From Escherichia coli (lineage in GTDB: Bacteria > Pseudomonadota > Gammaproteobacteria > Enterobacterales > Enterobacteriaceae), in the NCBI RefSeq assembly GCF_046105845.1, contig NZ_CP151004.1: a stretch of DNA of 64,000 bases. One strand, written 5' to 3'. Below are positions 7,490 to 57,775 of the stretch, in pieces; the first letter of the stretch is position 1; every line of letters starts with the position of its first letter. The notes below the pieces were generated by a model. That model made no database searches. It was not told the origin of the DNA and saw only the letters and a list, made by a program, of their open reading frames with translations. The translations under genes and the position numbers were made by a program.

Positions 7490-7963
7490 TTATTGCCGCC
7501 ACGGCATGACAGGAACCGCGCTAATCGCGTTTTTCGGCGAACCTTCTACAACTTTGTCGGAGTAAGCCAGATAAGCGAGCGCGTTGCGTTTGGCGTCATA
7601 AAAGCGCACGACCTGTAACGACTTAAAGACCAGGGACGTGCGTTTTTTGAATACTACCTCGCCCTGAGCTTTGCCGTTTTTAATACGATCCGACAGTTCA
7701 ATCGGCCCGACTTGCTGACAAGAAATGGCCGCATCGGAGGTATCTTCCGCCAGACCCAATCCCCCTTTAATACCACCGGTTTTCGCCCGGCTCACATAAC
7801 AGGTGACATTTTTCACATCGGGATCGTCAAAGGCTTCCACAACAATTTTGTGATCCGGGCCGATCATTTTAAATACGGTGTCGACCGAACCAATCTCTTC
7901 TGCATGAGCCAATGGCCCCAGCATTATCAGGCTTAAAGACAGGATCAAATGCTTGTATTTCAT
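7490..7963 (-). CDS. creA: Periplasmic protein CreA (157 aa, signal peptide)
   Basis: ORF track; N-terminal signal sequence [21 protein letters not shown]. Confidence 0.85.
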
Positions 7964-8173
7964 ATTGTTACCATTTTTATCTATTACACGAGCAATTAGT
8001 TCGTCACGGTAAATAACATATTGATTAAGAACAAAATCTCAATACTTTTATTTCCGTCAAGCCCTAAAACATACTCTACTAAGAAAAAAACACTGAATGC
8101 TAAAACAGCAAAAAATGCTATTATCCAATTACCTGATGTCAGGTGCTCGTTGTTGAAAGGATGAGGATATTTT

Positions 8174-9043
8174 ATGGATCAGGCCGGCATTATTCGCGAC
8201 CTTTTAATCTGGCTGGAAGGTCATCTGGATCAGCCCCTGTCGCTCGACAATGTAGCGGCGAAAGCAGGTTATTCCAAGTGGCACTTACAGAGAATGTTTA
8301 AAGATGTCACTGGCCATGCTATTGGCGCGTATATTCGTGCTCGTCGTTTGTCGAAATCGGCGGTCGCACTACGCCTGACTGCGCGTCCGATTCTGGACAT
8401 CGCGCTGCAATACCGCTTCGACTCTCAACAGACATTTACCCGCGCATTCAAGAAGCAGTTTGCCCAGACTCCTGCACTTTACCGCCGTTCTCCTGAATGG
8501 AGCGCCTTTGGTATTCGCCCGCCGCTACGCCTGGGTGAATTCACTATGCCAGAGCACAAATTTGTCACCCTGGAAGATACGCCGCTGATTGGTGTTACCC
8601 AGAGCTACTCCTGTTCGCTGGAGCAAATCTCTGATTTCCGCCATGAAATGCGTTATCAGTTCTGGCACGATTTTCTCGGCAACGCGCCGACCATTCCGCC
8701 GGTGCTCTACGGCCTGAATGAAACGCGTCCGAGTCAGGATAAAGATGACGAACAAGAGGTATTCTATACCACTGCGTTAGCCCAGGATCAGGCAGATGGC
8801 TATGTACTGACGGGGCATCCGGTGATGCTGCAGGGCGGCGAATATGTGATGTTTACCTATGAAGGTCTGGGAACCGGCGTGCAGGAGTTTATCCTGACGG
8901 TATACGGGACGTGCATGCCAATGCTCAACCTGACGCGCCGTAAAGGTCAGGATATTGAGCGATACTACCCGGCAGAAGATGCCAAAGCGGGAGATCGCCC
9001 AATTAATCTACGCTGTGAACTGCTGATTCCGATCCGTCGTTAA
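8174..9043 (+). CDS. rob: AraC-family right-origin-binding transcription factor Rob (289 aa)
   Basis: ORF track; N-terminal AraC HTH and C-terminal GyrI-like domain. Confidence 0.9.
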   Translation: MDQAGIIRDLLIWLEGHLDQPLSLDNVAAKAGYSKWHLQRMFKDVTGHAIGAYIRARRLSKSAVALRLTARPILDIALQYRFDSQQTFTRAFKKQFAQTPALYRRSPEWSAFGIRPPLRLGEFTMPEHKFVTLEDTPLIGVTQSYSCSLEQISDFRHEMRYQFWHDFLGNAPTIPPVLYGLNETRPSQDKDDEQEVFYTTALAQDQADGYVLTGHPVMLQGGEYVMFTYEGLGTGVQEFILTVYGTCMPMLNLTRRKGQDIERYYPAEDAKAGDRPINLRCELLIPIRR

Positions 9044-34819: not shown

Positions 34820-36406
34820 TTAATGCTCGCGGGTCTGGTGGAACTGAACGTCCGGATAACGTTCCTGCGCCAGGCGCAGGTTTACCATGCTGGTAGCGAT
34901 GTAAGCGAGGTTATCGCCGCCATCAAGCGCCAGTTGGCTTTCGTTCTTACGCTTGAACTCTTCGAATTTCTTCGCGTCCGCACATTCTACCCAGCGGGCA
35001 GTGGCAACGTTGACTGACTCATACACTGCTTCAACGTTGTATTCGCTCTTCAGGCGCGCTACCACCACATCAAACTGCAGCACACCAACCGCGCCAACGA
35101 TCAGATCGTTGTTGGAGATCGGACGGAACACCTGCACCGCGCCCTCTTCGGAAAGCTGTACCAGCCCTTTAAGCAGCTGTTTTTGCTTCAGCGGATCTTT
35201 CAGGCGGATACGACGGAACAGTTCTGGCGCGAAGTTCGGAATACCGGTGAACTTCATCATCTCACCCTGGGTAAAGGTGTCGCCGATCTGAATGGTGCCG
35301 TGGTTGTGCAGACCAAGGATATCGCCAGGATATGCTTCTTCAACGTGCGAACGGTCACCCGCCATAAAGGTCAGCGCGTCGGAGATCACCACATCTTTCG
35401 CAGTACGCACCTGGCGCAGCTTCATGCCTTTTTCATATTTACCGGACACCACACGCATAAACGCCACGCGGTCGCGGTGTTTCGGGTCCATGTTGGCCTG
35501 AATTTTAAATACGAAGCCGGTAAATTTGTCTTCGCTCGCCTCTACGGTACGGGTATCAGTCTGACGCGGCATCGGCGCAGGGGCCCACTCCACCAGGCCA
35601 TCCAGCATATGATCGACGCCGAAGTTACCCAGCGCAGTACCAAAGAATACCGGGGTGATTTCGCCCGCAAGGAACAATTCTTTGTCGAACTCGTTAGACG
35701 CGCCTTTCACCAGCTCCAGTTCATCACGCAGCTGCTGCGCCAGATCTTCACCAACCGCAGCGTCGAGATCCGGGTTATTCAGCCCTTTAACAATGCGGAC
35801 TTCCTGAATGGTGTGGCCTTTACCACTCTGATAAAGATAGGTTTCATCTTTATAAAGGTGATAAACGCCTTTAAACAGCTTGCCGCAGCCAATCGGCCAG
35901 GTGATCGGTGCACAGCCGATTTTCAGCTCGTTCTCAACTTCATCGAGCAGCTCCATCGGGTCGCGGATATCACGGTCAAGTTTGTTCATAAAGGTGAGGA
36001 TCGGCGTGTCGCGCAGACGGGTAACTTCCATCAGCTTACGGGTACGATCTTCAACACCTTTTGCGGCGTCGATAACCATCAGGCAGCAGTCCACCGCCGT
36101 CAGGGTACGATAGGTATCTTCCGAGAAGTCTTCGTGCCCCGGGGTGTCGAGCAGGTTAACCAGGCAATCGTGATACGGAAACTGCATCACAGACGTGGTA
36201 ATGGAGATCCCACGCTGCTTTTCCATCTCCATCCAGTCCGACTTAGCGTGCTGGTTGGAACCACGGCCTTTTACTGTACCGGCGGTCTGAATGGCCTGTC
36301 CGAACAGCAGCACCTTCTCGGTGATGGTAGTCTTACCGGCGTCCGGGTGAGAAATAATTGCAAAGGTTCTTCTTTTCGCTACCTCTGCGGCCAAAAGGCT
36401 TGTCAT
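34820..36406 (-). CDS. prfC: Peptide chain release factor 3 (RF3); first about 9 codons differ from the K-12 N-terminus I recall
   Basis: ORF track 34820..36433; start at [27 protein letters not shown]; rest of the protein matches E. coli RF3. Confidence 0.9.
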
Positions 36407-36560
36407 AATTGTTGTCTCTTTGATTATGTACAATCATATGTACAAAGAAAAATTCATGCCGCTGATTGTACATTTTGGAGGTATCAGAGCATAGCAGAAC
36501 ATGATCAGTAGGTGTATTTGTAGCCAAAGAACATTTGTACATGCAGCAATCTTTGTTCTA

Positions 36561-36610
36561 TTGACACTGTTTATTCATACAGTTAAAAATAACACTGTAT
36601 ACAAACACAG
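36561..36610 (+). promoter_or_regulatory. Promoter with two LexA (SOS) boxes upstream of the dinI-like gene
   Basis: -35 ttgaca at 36561-36566; CTGT-N8-ACAG boxes ctgtttattcatacag (36567-36582) and ctgtatacaaacacag (36595-36610). Confidence 0.65.
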
Positions 36611-36625
36611 TGTAGAGGGATTTTT

Positions 36626-36874
36626 ATGCGTATTGAGATCTGCATAGCCAAAGAGAAAATGACTAAAATGCCAAACGGTGCTGTGGATGCGTTAAAGGAA
36701 GAATTAACTCGACGCATCAGTAAGCGTTATGACGATGTAGAGGTGATCGTAAAAGCCACCAGCAACGATGGCCTTTCTGTTACGCGCACCGCCGATAAAG
36801 ATTCAGCTAAAACTTTTGTTCAGGAAACTCTGAAAGATACCTGGGAGTCTGCTGACGAGTGGTTTGTTCACTAA
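36626..36874 (+). CDS. DinI-family SOS-response protein (prophage-borne), 82 aa
   Basis: ORF track; [11 protein letters not shown]...[11 protein letters not shown] closely resembles DinI (MRIEVTIAKT...TWESADDWFV). Confidence 0.8.
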
Positions 36875-37300
36875 TTAACACGTAAAATCGGTAACGGCTG
36901 GAAATCATTCAATACTCGCACTATCGGAAGTTCACCAGCCAACCGCAGCACGTTCTTGCATACGACGTGTCTGCGGTTTTTCAACCATTCAGATACAGCA
37001 CTCTCATAACATTCATTCTTCCGCATTAAAGTATATATGACCATATCACCTTAATATTTTTCTTCTTCAGATAAAAATTGTTATCTATGTATACTTTTAA
37101 ACCGAATCCGTGTAGAGTCTCTACCTAAGTTAGTTCGCAGCTCCCCCTTCAGTTTGCGCCATTAACCTCCTGACTTTTGCCGCTATCTGTAAGCATTCCT
37201 GTATACCTGAAACTACAGGGTTCATCTACGAACTTTAAGAACACCCAGGATAAAAATTGTCAACTATATTATATATAACACCATACTAATTCGAGGCTAT

Positions 37301-37414
37301 ATGAACAGCATACTGATAATCACTTCACTACTTATCATATTCAGCATTTTTGGTCATGCTCTAATAAAATTAGGGATTGGCATATCCAATAACCCGGACA
37401 AAACAGATGTATAA
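37301..37414 (+). CDS. Candidate 37-aa hydrophobic peptide ([37 protein letters not shown]) with GAGG ribosome-binding site
   Basis: Manual ORF in AT-rich region; single predicted TM helix; below ORF track cutoff; coding status unproven. Confidence 0.3.
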
Positions 37415-37482
37415 GTCAACATATCCTGAATCAGACATACAATATTGCAATGAAAACCAATAATATTTTAAGGAATATCTTC

Positions 37483-37716
37483 ATGAAATCAAAAGACACC
37501 CTAAAGTGGTTCCCTGCGCAGCTTCCTGAAGTCAGAATTATCCTGGGAGATGCTGTCGTGGAAGTAGCAAAACAGGGAAGACCTATCAATACCAGAACAT
37601 TGCTTGATTACATTGAAGGAAACATAAAGAAAAAGTCATGGCTGGATAACAAAGAATTATTACAAACAGCGATATCAGTTCTTAAAGACAACCAAAATTT
37701 AAATGGTAAAGTGTAA
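37483..37716 (+). CDS. YnaE/YdfK-like small prophage protein (about 77 aa)
   Basis: ORF track 37450..37716; start at MKSKDTLKWFPAQLPEV; resembles Rac/Qin ynaE/ydfK as I recall them, located next to the pin-like gene as in those prophages. Confidence 0.5.
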   Translation: MKSKDTLKWFPAQLPEVRIILGDAVVEVAKQGRPINTRTLLDYIEGNIKKKSWLDNKELLQTAISVLKDNQNLNGKV

Positions 37717-38095
37717 TACCCCCCCTGAAAAATAATTTTTCAATGCATTAAAAAAATATCAACAACTACGTTATTCCGCAACAACCTACTTTTTTTACCA
37801 TTTTTCCACTTTAACAACATTTTGCTCCACTTTTCCACGACCAAACAACTTAAAATCTGGTTGAAATAACATACAACACTATTATTCGTCTTCCTCGAGT
37901 CCGCCCGGAGTTCGAAAAACAAACCGAGTTAAAGCCATTTTTCAAAAAATCGATTTTTGGTTACACCAAAATTACGGGACTGCATCCGAATTCGTTTATT
38001 TTCGAACGTATACATACAAATATGTACAATAATAAGCGAAATAATTTTTGGATATGCATTATGATATGTACACCAATTTCGTATAGAGTCTCACT

Positions 38096-38686
38096 ATGTC
38101 TCGAATTTTTGCTTACTGTCGGATATCAACGCTGGATCAGACCACCGAAAATCAACGCCGGGAAATCGAAAGTGCAGGTTTTAAAATCAAACCTCAGCAA
38201 ATAATCGAAGAACACATTAGCGGCTCAGCAGCAACCAGTGAGCGTCCTGGTTTTAACCGGTTGCTTGCTCGCCTGAAATGTGGTGATCAATTGATTGTGA
38301 CAAAACTGGATCGCCTTGGTTGTAATGCAATGGATATCAGGAAAACAGTGGAACAACTGACCGAAACAGGTATCAGAGTGCATTGCTTAGCATTGGGGGG
38401 CATTGACCTGACCAGTCCAACAGGAAAAATGATGATGCAAGTAATTTCAGCAGTCGCTGAATTTGAACGAGACCTTTTACTTGAACGCACTCATTCCGGG
38501 ATAGTAAGAGCCCGGGGCGCAGGGAAACGTTTTGGTCGACCACCTGTGTTAAATGAAGAACAGAAACAGGTGGTATTCGAACGGATTAAGTCAGGTGTAA
38601 GTATAAGTGCCATTGCCCGGGAATTCAAAACCTCGCGGCAAACCATTTTAAGAGCCAAAGCAAAACTTCAGACACCTGACATATAA
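38096..38686 (+). CDS. Serine recombinase / DNA invertase of the PinR/PinQ type (196 aa)
   Basis: ORF track; catalytic-Ser N-terminus [17 protein letters not shown] motif, C-terminal HTH; adjacent to tail-fibre genes. Confidence 0.85.
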
Positions 38687-38783
38687 AAAATAATCTTGGT
38701 GTGAGATGCTTTACGTCTTCCAAGCCCCCTTCCTTGCCGTAAATGGAAAGATACATCTAATTATAGAATTTATATGTTTTACC

Positions 38784-39359
38784 CTACGGCAGTGCTGGCC
38801 ATTCAATATCCTGTGCAGTTGACGTATCAACACGGTTCAGCAATACCCGATACTTTTTCCATGCTTCCAGCAACGAGATTTCTTCCTCCGTTGCAATTTC
38901 CAGATCTGCAGCATCCTGAAGCGGCGCAATATGCTCACTGGCTACCTGCATCAGGCTGTTTTTTGTTTCTTCCGCCTCCCGGATCCGGAACAGTTTTTCT
39001 GCTTCTGCATCTTTCACCCAGGCTGTGCCGTTCCACTTCTGAAACTCCCCTTCCGGCGATAACCAGGTAACATTTTCCGGTAACGGACCGAGTTCAGAAA
39101 TAAATAACGCGTCCCCTGACGCTACGTCATAAACCGTTTTACCCCGATGGTCTTCAACGAGATGCCACGATGCCTCATCACTGTTGAAAACAGCCACGAA
39201 GCCTGCCGGAATATCTGGCGGTGCAATATCGGTACTGTTTGCTGGCAGACCTGTATGAGGCGGAATATATGCGTCACCTTCACCAATAAATTCATTAGTT
39301 CCGGCCAGCAGATTATAAATTTTTATGGTCCGTGGTTGTTCACTCATTCTGAATGCCAT
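38784..39359 (-). CDS. Tail fibre assembly protein (Tfa), 191 aa
   Basis: ORF track; immediately downstream of side tail fibre gene; Tfa-like size. Confidence 0.8.
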
Positions 39360-42300
39360 TATGCAAGCCTCACAATGTAGTTAAATGCGATGTTTTTGAC
39401 GGTGTTTTCCGCGTTACCAGCAGCGTTAACGGTGATAGTGTGTCCATGTGAGCCAATCGCAACAGAGTGCGTATGAGCACCAATACCGACAGTATGTGCG
39501 TGAGCACCTGCAGATGCGGCTGTGCCGCTAACACTATGAGTGTGCGCTCCTGCAGCACTTGTATTCACACTGGCCGCAGACACTACCTTATGTACTGACC
39601 CATTTTGTGACCACTGGCTGACTGCTGATGCGCCTGTGACACTATGAGTATGGTTTCCGGCACTTGCGGCTGTACCGCTCACACTGTGCGTATGCGCCCC
39701 GGTGTTATTCGTGGATTTAGTGCCGTAATCAAACGACGATGTGGTTTTCGTCCCCAAATCCGTACTGGATGCGCTGGCGCTGTGGGTGTGCGATTTAATG
39801 CCGTCCTGTTCCTGAGACAATACGGCCCGACCACTGGCAGGTTTGCCCTTAATCGTCCAGCTACGCATATCAGGGATCACGCCTGACGGATAAGCGGCTG
39901 CAAGTTTCGGGTATGCAGATTTGTCAAAAGTCTGCCCCTGCATCAGGGCATAACCAGACGGAACGGTATCTGATGGCCACGGGATTGGTGCGCCGACTGG
40001 GTAGCTTTCTGGTGGAAGATTTTTCGAGGTATAAACTTCTGCCCAGTCTTCCTCAAAACCATAGCCATCTCTTGAGGAACGGTAGAACAGACCTCCATTT
40101 CTGTAATGCGCCTTCATCTGCAGGGTCCGGCAACTTCCGACTCCGGTATAGAAGTTAACCAGAATATAGCTGTCGCCAGAGCGGGTGACATTGTAAGCGC
40201 CTGATTCGGCATTCCATGGAACGCCCCCATCCGCATCGGCATACGTATCCGTTGCTCTTCTGGCAAAAGCAGCCACATGCGCGGCGGTTAAAGTAATATC
40301 TTTGGAACCATCAAACTCAACACCAGAAACCCGTCTTGGCGTTTGCAGCTTTGTTGCTGTTAATGCATTACCGTTCAGACTTGCGGACAGTTTGGTTCCA
40401 ATAACCAGCTCGCCGGTTGCGTTATCAATAGCAAACGGTCTTAATGTATTCCAGCCACCATAAACATCACCTTGATTGGTAAGCAGCAGGTAAGTTTTAG
40501 CGCCATCATTACGCCATAATGCACCATACTCCCCACCTATCATTCGAATCTGATTACCACCACGCGCTACAATTTCGTCTGTGGCAAAAAGTTTTTTGCA
40601 CGACAAGTTATCGTTAACGATTAACGAATGAGACTCATAAAAACCACGCCCACTCTTAAAATCAAGGATAACGTCCGCCGCGATACATTCAGTCGCTGGA
40701 TTTGTTGCCCCAAACTTATAGGTCGTATCATTAACAACGAGATCAGCACCAGGTGCGGATATTGACAGGCCATCTTCGATAAACGCAAAAACAGGGAAAG
40801 CAGCGCCATCAACATAGAACACAGAGCGCAAATCATCGCCCTTATTACTCATCATTATTGAGTGGATGGCTCGTTCATTGTTTTGATATTGCCAGAACAT
40901 TCCATAAGCATAACGCCCCCTGTCAGTCCAGCCACCAGGCATAACAAATCCGTTAAACTCGCAGTTATTCATCGGATCGCCTGCGGTTCGCGTTGCCGTG
41001 GTGATAATGACCCTTGATGCCAGTTCGCTTACTGAGCCAGCAGAACGCATAACAACAACAGGGTAATATTTTCCAGATGTTGCACCTGCAGGAGCGTTAA
41101 CCCGCACATAACGCATACCACGCTTATCAGCAAAGTCTGTTTTACTGACCGCGTTAATGTTGTTCAGGAAGCGTCCCTTATCGGGTATATCAGCGCCGTT
41201 CTGGTCTTTCTGCAGACGTTTCTCTGCATTGTCATAGGCTGATTTTACTGCCTTTGGCGTTGCCGCCAGCGTTTCAGACGTACTGTTGGTCGCACTGCTG
41301 AGCTGTACTATCCCCTTTTTCGTCGTGCTCGCATCCTCAAGCGCCACGGCGGATGCAATATCCTCTGCCCGTTTTGCCGCTGTCTCAGCGCGCGTTGCTG
41401 CAGATTCCGCCGTACTTTTGCTCTGAGCTGCTGCCGTCGCACTACCAGCAGCCTCTGTCGCCTTCGTGGATGCCGTCGTGGCGCTGCCCTTCGCTGCTGA
41501 CGCCTGTCTGGTCGCCTCATCTTTTGAAGCAGACGCCGATGAGGCCGATGACGCCGCCGAACTGGCGGACGATGCCGCTGCCGTTTTTGAGGATTCTGCA
41601 CGGGTTTCCGACGCTTTCGCGTTCGTTTCGGATGTCTTCGCTGCGGAAGCTGACCTCGCTGCTGCCGTGGCCTGCTCAGTGGCTTCGCCAGCCTTCGTTG
41701 TGGCTGTTGAAGCGGATGATGCGGCGCTTTCTGCCGATTTTCCGGCGGCGGTGGCACTGACTGAGGCCTGCCCGGCACTTGTTGACGCGGCACTGGCAGA
41801 CGACGCAGCCGCTGTTTTTGAGCCTGCCGCAGCTGAGGCGCTCTGTCCCGCTGCCGTCTCAGAAGACCTGGCGTTCGTCTCGGACGTTTTTGCCGCCTTC
41901 GCGGAATTTCCTGCCGCCGTTGCCGAGGAAGCTGCGCTGCTGGCGCTCGAGGCTGCGTTCGTTTCTGATGATTTTGCCGCCTCTTTTGAAGCCGACGCAT
42001 CCCGTGCTGAAGTGGCTGCTTCTGACGCTTTCGTGGTCGCGGTGGATGCAGAAGTGGCTGCTGATTGTTGTGACGCTGCCGCATTCGTTTCTGACGTTTT
42101 CGCCGCACCGGCACTGGTAGCCGCCGCGCTTTTTGAGGACTCTGCAGCGGCAGCACTTTTTGATGCTTCAGTGGCCTTTGCTGATGCCGTTCCTGCGCTG
42201 GAAGACGCTGACTGAGCCGACGACGCGGCCTGTCCGGCTGACGTGCTGGCTGCGCGTGCTGAGCCTGCAGCATCAGTCGCATGGGTTGCCGCCTCACGGG

Positions 42301-42718
42301 CTGATGTGCTGGCATTGCTGGCTGACTTCTTCGCGGCTGCTGTGTTCTGTGCCACCGCGGACGCGTTACGCGCCACCTCTTCCACCATCAGTTCAAAACG
42401 TCGCAGTGCCTCCGGACGGGTATCATCCTCCGTCATGGCACCGAGAAAATCATTCAGCGTACCGGGTTGAGAATCTTCATACACGGTGATGGTCCCGGCA
42501 TGTGACGGCGGGAATCCCTCCACCAACAGAATAACGCTGTACTGACCGTACTCAACGTCCATACTGTAACGCCCGGCTTCATCCGGATTTTCTGAGGCCA
42601 GCGTGTTCACCACCACAGTGGTACTGTTACGTTTTGCTTTCAGCTGGATTGTGCAGTTCTGTACCGGTTTTCCTGTGCCGTCTTTCAGTACACCTGAAAT
42701 CTTTACTGCCATATTCAC
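39359..42718 (-). CDS. Lambdoid side tail fibre protein (Stf-like), 1119 aa with long Ala/Ser/Thr-rich low-complexity region
   Basis: ORF track; N-terminus [17 protein letters not shown] typical of Stf; StfR-like length. Confidence 0.8.
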
Positions 42719-42776: not shown

Positions 42777-43376
42777 TCAGAATTTATAACCGACACCCAC
42801 GATGAAACCGTCAGTGCGCCAGTCACCACTGCCGGAGCCTTCATAAGCAATATCAATGGCCACGGATTCGGTCGGGTTAAACTGCACGCCAGCCCCCCAC
42901 GCCAGAGACGTGTTGCTGTGGCGACCGTCATCACTTCCGGTCAGCACATCGTGCGTTTTCCCCTTGTTGTCAGTTACGCGGAGATAATCCCCGGAGAAAG
43001 TCGACACACGGCTGTAAGCCACACCCGCCATCGCATACGCGCTGAACCATTCATTCACGCGTACAGACGGCCCCGCCATCACGCTGAACCAGCGGTTACG
43101 CACTGAATCTTCATGCCAGCGGGTATCGCTGTAACGGGTAAGCTGGCGATTCTTGTCTCCTGCATAGCTGAATGACGTCACCAGCCCCAGTGTGTCCGTA
43201 AACTCATAACGGTATTTCACGTTAATCCCGTTCAGATCATCGCTGCCGGAAACGTTCGTCGAGGCATGAAGATAGCCCGCGCTCAGCGTGGACTGATGTT
43301 CAGACGCCCATGCAGGCGCACCGGATACGGCCAGACAGATGGCTGCGGACAAAATGGTGGCATAAAGTTTACGCAT
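42777..43376 (-). CDS. Lom/Ail-family outer membrane beta-barrel protein (199 aa)
   Basis: ORF track; signal peptide, C-terminal ...VGVGYKF beta-barrel terminus; lambda lom position between J and stf. Confidence 0.8.
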
Positions 43377-43442: not shown

Positions 43443-44948
<1,506 letters not shown>

Positions 44949-57451: not shown

Positions 57452-57775
57452 TTTGTCGCTCCATGCGTTTGCTCTTCACTTGCGGCTAAAAATATAACGT
57501 CAAATCACTCAGCATGAAAGAGTGAAAGTTTCAGCGCGTTTCCCTTACATAATCTGTCGTTTGTATTCTCTTCAGGCATACCGGAAAGACTAGGTATTGT
57601 CACACAACCAATACCATCGACAATCGAGATTTATATCTATTCGGTAATGTTTAAATATAACAAAACCCCGTAAAAACGAGGTTTATGGGTATTTTGTTGT
57701 CTGAAATTTATGCCGTTTAAAATCATGACGTTAGAAGCACTGTTTTTTAACGATGGCGACAAAATGGCGGCAGCG

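Follow-up and report, generated by a model that had tools for sequence, protein, structure and literature searches.

We analyzed a stretch of 64,000 nucleotides (nt) of the Escherichia coli chromosome (contig NZ_CP151004.1; "the window" hereafter means this whole stretch) in which pin, a gene for a small serine recombinase, lies beside the tail-fibre assembly gene tfa and the side tail-fibre gene stf of a lambdoid prophage (Table 1). The first-pass annotation had placed this recombinase about 100 bp from the tfa stop codon, with an AT-rich, ydfK-like block upstream of it and no tfa or stf cassette in the opposite orientation, and had proposed that the invertible segment had shrunk or become locked in one orientation, as in the prophages Rac and Qin. 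The layout stands as described: the open reading frame (ORF) listing and the RefSeq annotation of identical DNA leave 97 nt between the stop codons of pin and tfa, and the ydfK-type gene sits in DNA with a guanine plus cytosine content of 34–36% (37000–38000). The proposal of a reduced or fixed invertible segment is not supported, since the recombinase falls outside the Gin/Hin/Cin/PinE group and the DNA around it is instead homologous to the res-tnpR-inverted repeat (IR) end of a transposon.

Table 1. Coordinates of the pin locus, its sequence relics and the neighbouring genes in the window.
Feature	Position	Strand	Description and basis
prfC	34820–36406	-	Abuts the tail-fibre end of the lambdoid prophage
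dinI-like gene	36626–36874	+	Right of prfC
YnaM/YnfT-family small ORF	37301–37414	+	NCBIfam NF041477, 59.9 bits (cut-off 35); annotated in identical DNA
ydfK/ynaE-type gene	37483–37716	+	Annotated as cold-shock protein (RefSeq annotation of identical DNA)
res subsite I relic (putative crossover site)	37983–38008	+	CATCCGAAT-N8-TTTCGAACG; half-site mismatches 3 and 2 against the consensus TGTCCGAAA
res subsite II relic (putative)	38023–38054	+	TGTACAATA-N14-TTTTGGATA; half-site mismatches 3 and 2; conserved CG lost in each half-site
res subsite III relic and promoter-proximal region (putative)	38064–38085	+	Best-kept part of the res relic
pin	38096–38686	+	196-aa small serine recombinase; ORF listing, RefSeq annotation of identical DNA, Pfam Resolvase and HTH_7
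pin codon 76	38321–38323	+	TGT (Cys); CGT in the plasmid copy
Spacer and degenerate Tn3-family terminal inverted repeat	38687–38729	-	8-nt spacer AAAATAAT; outer end of the repeat faces tfa
tfa	38784–39359	-	Tail-fibre assembly; Pfam Caudo_TAP; sole copy in the window
stf	39359–42718	-	Side tail-fibre, 1119 aa; Pfam phage_tail_N/Collar; sole copy in the window
lom	42777–43376	-	Right of stf

The Pin protein is 100% identical to PinR and 99% identical to PinQ, encoded by the Rac and Qin prophages of strain K-12, respectively, and Tfa is 98% identical to both TfaR and TfaQ. Gene order (ynaM/ynfT – ynaE/ydfK – pin – tfa – stf) and the length of the pin-tfa spacer are also the same in all three prophages, and so the proposed resemblance to Rac and Qin holds and the locus is the already known PinR/PinQ module. 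The copy in the window differs from the K-12 modules in that it belongs to another lambdoid prophage, whose integration site is the 5' end of prfC, has a few single-nucleotide polymorphisms (SNPs) in the res relic, and lies in a prophage that has lost 6.3 kb of tail genes through an insertion sequence (IS). Isolated lambdoid phages such as Turner and HannyBb carry the same module, with the fibre genes on one side of it and the int/att region on the other, and the AT-rich block with its YnaM/YnfT ORF is a constant companion of pin in Rac, Qin, and these two phages.

The nearest relatives of the pin product are transposon resolvases. Pin shares 84% amino acid identity with TnpR of a plasmid-borne transposon and 77% with a TnpR of Shewanella, and a scan of one genome per species retrieved homologues at 59–78% in Erwinia, Shewanella, Budvicia, Photorhabdus, and others. 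The TnpR subfamily as a whole comprises roughly 7,800 members. In all non-phage lineages examined, the Pin homologue is the tnpR product of a Tn3-family transposon. The Shewanella gene (L009) is divergent from that of a 1033-aa Tn3-family transposase within a 9,428-bp element that is bounded by perfect 38-bp terminal repeats (GGGGTCCGCTTGGAAAACGGAAAATATCCTACG[C/T]TAAG) and a 5-bp duplication of the target (TAGAT); the same 38-bp repeats recur at the loci in Budvicia and Photorhabdus. On E. coli IncF plasmids (L017–L019) we found a minimal transposon of 3,815 bp with the order left IR-tnpA-160-bp res-tnpR-right IR, whose 994-aa TnpA scores 1193 bits on the Tn3 transposase model NF033527; 186 plasmid records contain at least 80% of the element, and 1,802 contain some part of it. 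Likewise, Klebsiella-type and Hafnia-type homologues (80% and 78% identity) have a divergent gene for a 994-aa DDE_Tnp_Tn3 transposase 159 nt upstream. Pin is therefore orthologous, at identities of 77–84%, to the TnpR proteins of genes that lie divergently beside Tn3-family transposases. Another arrangement was observed in Erwinia oleae (L008, 1268–2652), in which two paralogous resolvase genes (82% amino acid identity) stand head to head around a 203-bp, partly palindromic spacer with duplicated res half-sites.

The homology to the plasmid transposon is not confined to the protein. Over 38051–38729 the window is 83–89% identical to it per 100 nt, the 5' coding DNA of pin being 84–89% identical to the transposon tnpR, and this similarity collapses beyond 38729. 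Upstream of the gene, half-sites were scanned at conserved offsets from the ATG, and res subsite I was placed by combining that scan with an alignment to the transposon res regions. In the transposon copies, half-sites close to TGTCCGAAA occur at -115/-98, -75/-52, and -21 from the ATG (in three of them also at -34), corresponding to three subsites. Mismatches per half-site number 0–1 in the elements from E. coli plasmids, Shewanella, and Photorhabdus and reach at most 2 in those more remotely related. The same half-site spacing is found in the window, in Rac, and in a diverged copy carried by a phage, but each half-site there has 2–3 mismatches. Conservation is highest towards the promoter, where 38035–38083 is 90% identical to the plasmid transposon (blastn-short, E = 2.5e-11).

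Downstream of pin, position 38729 coincides with the outer end of a degenerate terminal repeat. The minus-strand sequence of this repeat (38729 to 38695) is GGGGGCTTGGAAGACGTAAAGCATCTCACACCAAG, which matches GGGGTCCGCTTGGAAAACGGAAAATATCCCACGCTAAG at 27/35 positions with a 3-nt deletion; no other IR match in the window scores higher. The repeat starts 9 nt past the stop codon both in the window and in the plasmid transposon, after 8-nt spacers that read AAAATAAT and AAAATAGT, respectively. In a Qin-type prophage of E. coli S51 (L022, 6160–6200), the insertion point of an IS3 element coincides with the outer end of the relic repeat (…CCAAGCCCCC|TGATCCTACCC…), on the far side of which tfa and stf are deleted. 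The S51 match that ends at 38730 thus derives from an IS3 insertion and an adjacent deletion, and it was not counted as support for the boundary.

Compared with the 3.8-kb IncF and 9.4-kb Shewanella elements, as well as with the prototypes Tn3 and gamma-delta, the locus has, upstream of the resolvase gene, a region homologous to a three-subsite res with the same half-site spacing and, at the same post-stop offset, a single degenerate terminal repeat, but it has a lone res with degraded half-sites, lacks tnpA and the left repeat, and is embedded in a phage genome. The slot held by tnpA in the intact transposon is occupied by the ydfK/ynaE-type gene, in the same order as in Rac and Qin. A tblastn search with the 994-aa TnpA yielded no tnpA remnant in the window (best E 0.22), and neither a left or second terminal repeat nor a second res-like site was found there. 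A precedent for the stranding of such a half-element is provided by a colicin/microcin plasmid contig (L020, 7900–8640), which carries a tnpA-less res-tnpR-IR module with pemIK adjoining. As in the phage-borne copies, tnpR, res, and the right-hand repeat are present there without a transposase. The left half of its res site I departs from the parental transposon, and the module looks like the product of recombination at site I. Unlike the phage-borne copy, which is degraded throughout, the plasmid module still has the catalytic Arg and, on the side that was retained, consensus half-sites.

That Arg is missing from Pin. Tn3 resolvase has the catalytic set Y6, R8, S10, D36, R68, and R71, for which Pin has Y7, R9, S11, E39, and R73 but Cys76. 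Alignments to chains from the Protein Data Bank (PDB), made with HMMER, set Cys76 against the Arg of KLDRLGR in Gin and gamma-delta resolvase, and by residue count this Arg is R71 of Tn3/gamma-delta resolvase. In the family alignment, Arg occupies the position in every transposon-borne homologue. Tn3 resolvase has six residues, R71 among them, at which mutation abolishes recombination and makes cleavage about 1000-fold slower (PMC2794168). Cys76 is also found in a second phage-borne clade (85% identical to Pin, and likewise 97 nt from tfa); therefore, the change from Arg to Cys is old and was retained. Among phage-borne copies of the clade the ratio of nonsynonymous to synonymous substitution rates (dN/dS) is 0.37, and in comparison with the plasmid tnpR it is 0.155, values which indicate relaxed yet continuing constraint on pin. 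Pin and the plasmid TnpR differ little in their helix-turn-helix (HTH) region (SRQTILRAK versus TRQTILRVR). In another strain, the same prfC prophage (L026, ~7948–8560) contains a tract of ~610 bp identical to the plasmid Tn3-family transposon, which in the manner of a gene conversion replaces most of pin and restores the catalytic Arg, so relic and transposon evidently still recombine as homologues.

Taken from sequence comparison, pin is thus very probably the surviving res-tnpR-IR(right) end (~750 bp, 37983–38729) of a compact Tn3-family transposon and was, with the same high confidence, never part of a tail-fibre inversion switch. An ancestral lambdoid phage would have gained the transposon just downstream of tfa, and its transposase side would later have been lost and replaced by the ynfT-ydfK block. 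Some observations speak against this origin. The relic of res site I aligns ambiguously, as another alignment puts a 21-nt insertion there. Scored by itself, the terminal repeat does not reach significance in the window as a whole (Smith-Waterman score 17, against a best-of-shuffle range of 11–18 in 20 shuffles), and it carries weight because of its position, orientation, and contiguous homology. Lambda and its relatives share tfa, and homology to them ends at ~38795, inside the 3' end of tfa, rather than at 38729. As neither an empty site nor the left end could be located, the insertion event is not reconstructable. Thousands of genomes, and isolated phages as well, have an uninterrupted pin ORF on which some constraint acts, and so it is no dead pseudogene; finally, a published effect of PinQ overproduction, discussed below, argues for catalysis despite Cys76.

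The arrangement of the locus does recall the Din invertases, i.e., Gin with the G segment of Mu and D108, PinE with the P segment of e14, and Cin with the C segment of P1. In all of these a small serine recombinase of the general Resolvase and HTH_7 fold lies beside tail-fibre and tfa genes and is convergent with them, as gin and pin are beside their own invertible segments, and 'pin' is the traditional name of the genes in Rac and Qin. One could therefore see here a degenerate inversion system of the Mu/P1/e14 type, frozen after the loss of the alternative cassette and of one or both crossover sites, but we consider this exceedingly improbable. Identity to Pin is only 39% for PinE and 38% for the D108 Gin, whereas these two invertases share 78% identity, and we took ~65–80% mutual identity as the mark of Din-family members. 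In the phage collection, 11 records are at least 95% identical to Pin, one lies at 60–80%, and the rest fall below 60%; NCBIfam has no model specific to the protein, and every match was far under its cut-off.

Nor does the DNA retain traces of such a system. Searches of the window in six frames by tblastn, with Tfa, the N-terminal and C-terminal 400 aa of Stf, and Pin as queries, returned only the genes themselves, the next matches having E values of 0.12 or more, which upholds the reported absence of an oppositely oriented cassette and extends it to fragments of one. Similarly, the first-pass annotation had seen no crossover sites by eye, and the inverted-repeat search that it suggested for the surroundings of tfa and the stf 3' end agrees with it: between 36400 and 43500 only pairs of 15–32 nt with 71–89% complementarity were found, which is chance level, and none convincingly brackets tfa and the stf 3' end. 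The pix site of e14 has no match in the window at up to 3 mismatches. The Din-type core AAACC-NN-GGTTT has a single 1-mismatch match, at 57673 (19 kb off), where 2.3 would be expected by chance, and no Din-type crossover site is present in the interior of stf. A scan for 26-nt sites built from the real gix (D108) and pix (e14) sites recovered both controls at 26/26 on their own loci, and its best score in the window was 22/26, the typical best of shuffled sequence. A near-palindrome, TTTCAAAAAATCGATTTTTGGTT, occurs in a single copy in the window at 37940–37962, just left of the res relic, and its core CAAAATCGATTTTG is kept in Rac, Qin, Turner, and HannyBb; it was rejected as a Din site, as it scores 22/26, the shuffle level, and has no partner. 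The DNA between pin and tfa is probably a degenerate transposon terminal repeat and not a crossover site.

The population data are in line with these results. We searched 5,426 complete E. coli genomes with the 401-nt pin-tfa junction and inspected an evenly spaced sample of 60 rows from the 4,085 records obtained. The junction is collinear in 2,627 of the 5,426 genomes. Partial junctions comprised breaks inside tfa (fibre-module swapping), tfa without pin (as in lambda-like phages), and a single IS3 insertion; no inversion class was seen, and apart from that IS3 insertion the 60 sampled records held no class with a broken spacer. BLAST searches in a recent study (PMC12529663, published in 2025), which describes PinQ and PinR as uncharacterised until then, also showed inversions in e14 only and none in Rac or Qin. 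Hence Pin has neither the protein identity, the paired 26-bp sites, the two cassettes, nor the two orientations of a Din-family member with an invertible tail-fibre segment, and there is no sign that the locus has ever been a shufflon. The second cassette and the paired inverted sites would be missing because pin never belonged to a tail-fibre inversion switch. With a lone degenerate res, no partner site, tnpA, or second repeat, and Cys76 in the enzyme, no local inversion or deletion is to be expected; local inversion is very unlikely, and presumably no recombination takes place at the pin locus.

Any activity of Pin would lie in DNA binding or in action in trans. On a transposon origin, Pin may have been kept as a DNA-binding protein that would autoregulate at the conserved promoter-proximal part of the res relic. 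In trans, it may also target the e14 pix sites, as a 2025 study claims, or the intact res of Tn3-family elements that enter the cell. According to the published view, PinR and PinQ are active invertases in trans, which flip the 1.8-kb P segment of e14 elsewhere in the genome, and the resulting chimeric tail-fibre protein prevents adsorption of T2. This view bears on function and does not conflict with a transposon origin; as an account of what the proteins do we hold it possible, though on the unlikely side. Overproduction of PinQ resulted in 88% inverted P segment versus ~30%, the effect disappeared on deletion of stfP, stfE, or e14, and T2 induces pinQ (PMC12529663). Moreover, the res half-site TGTCCGAAA and the pix half-site TCTCCCAAA are alike at 7/9 positions. 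However, the distance from the AAA to the TTT motif is 8 nt in res site I versus 6 nt in pix, the window has no pix site, and Pin has Cys in place of the Arg whose mutation abolishes recombination by Tn3 resolvase. The same study states that the P segment is locked in a pinE mutant despite the presence of pinQ and pinR, which fits PinE as the catalyst (PMC12529663). Inversion of e14 DNA in trans by PinQ is possible, but it sits uneasily with Cys76 and with the locked pinE mutant.

Alternatively, the phages may have kept a working resolvase that resolves phage multimers, or cointegrates of related Tn3-family elements, at its own or at a plasmid-borne res. The ORF is intact in isolated phages, its HTH is close to that of the plasmid TnpR, and the related transposon sequence is common on enterobacterial plasmids (the 1,802 records mentioned above). 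Such an activity is nevertheless improbable given the change of the catalytic Arg to Cys and an own res with 2–3 mismatches in all half-sites. Lambda-type phages package from concatemers and are not known to need dimer resolution, which also counts against it. A third proposal, which we put forward only tentatively and regard as doubtful, is that PinR and PinQ are exapted, catalytically attenuated Tn3-family resolvases that lambdoid phages keep as trans-acting DNA-binding proteins and not as recombinases of their own locus. In one version, the protein would repress or block intact res on Tn3-family transposons and plasmids that enter the cell; in another, it would bias the inversion of the e14 P segment catalysed by PinE.

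The surroundings of the module were also examined. The junction between prophage and chromosome (36380–36625) lies inside the prfC 5' end, and compared with K-12 the prophage DNA replaces the first ~8 codons and the whole upstream region; the start of the K-12 protein, which we take to be MTLSPYLQEVAKRR, differs from that in the window. As yjjG is absent from the window, the other end of the prophage lies beyond 64000. Four repeats that contain TGTACA (ATGTACAA-type), two direct and then two inverted, occupy 36425–36541 at the prophage end beside prfC. TGTACA has only 8 copies in the 64 kb, six of which cluster at 36427–36541 and 38023–38072. We considered whether these copies could be recombinase sites that bracket the dinI-ydfK block and rejected this, as the two upstream of pin occur as SNP variants (TGCACA/TGAACA) in Rac, Qin, Turner, and HannyBb, and the other cluster is located at the prophage end. 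The repeats at the prophage end may be integrase arm-type sites and are unrelated to pin. Directly upstream of the dinI-like gene, 36595–36610 holds a LexA-box-like CTGT-N8-ACAG (CTGTATACAAACACAG). Beyond lom, an IS3-family element of 1,258 bp (43691–44948; ends TGTAGTGG...CCACTACA) is inserted, and 6.3 kb are missing beside it in comparison with the JNEC-KY175 prophage, which is otherwise 99.3–99.9% identical. The missing DNA comprises most of J, the tail-tip genes, and part of the tape-measure gene; with these tail genes lost, the prophage here cannot make tails.

A literature search of incomplete coverage found no paper describing a Tn3 origin of PinR and PinQ, and a search with the repeat sequence was also empty. 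As a raw finding the locus is ordinary, since the PinR/PinQ module occurs in about half of complete E. coli genomes; its value lies in a corrected origin and in a testable doubt about catalysis. A Tn3 origin would answer a small, long-standing puzzle, namely why Rac and Qin carry a 'pin' with nothing to invert, and it would make the "DNA invertase" label on thousands of such genes an annotation artefact. Cys76, together with the locked pinE mutant, is a concrete and testable caveat to the 2025 claim that PinQ inverts e14 DNA. If PinR and PinQ do bias inversion catalysed by PinE, the published anti-T2 phenotype would be explained without any strand exchange by PinR or PinQ themselves.

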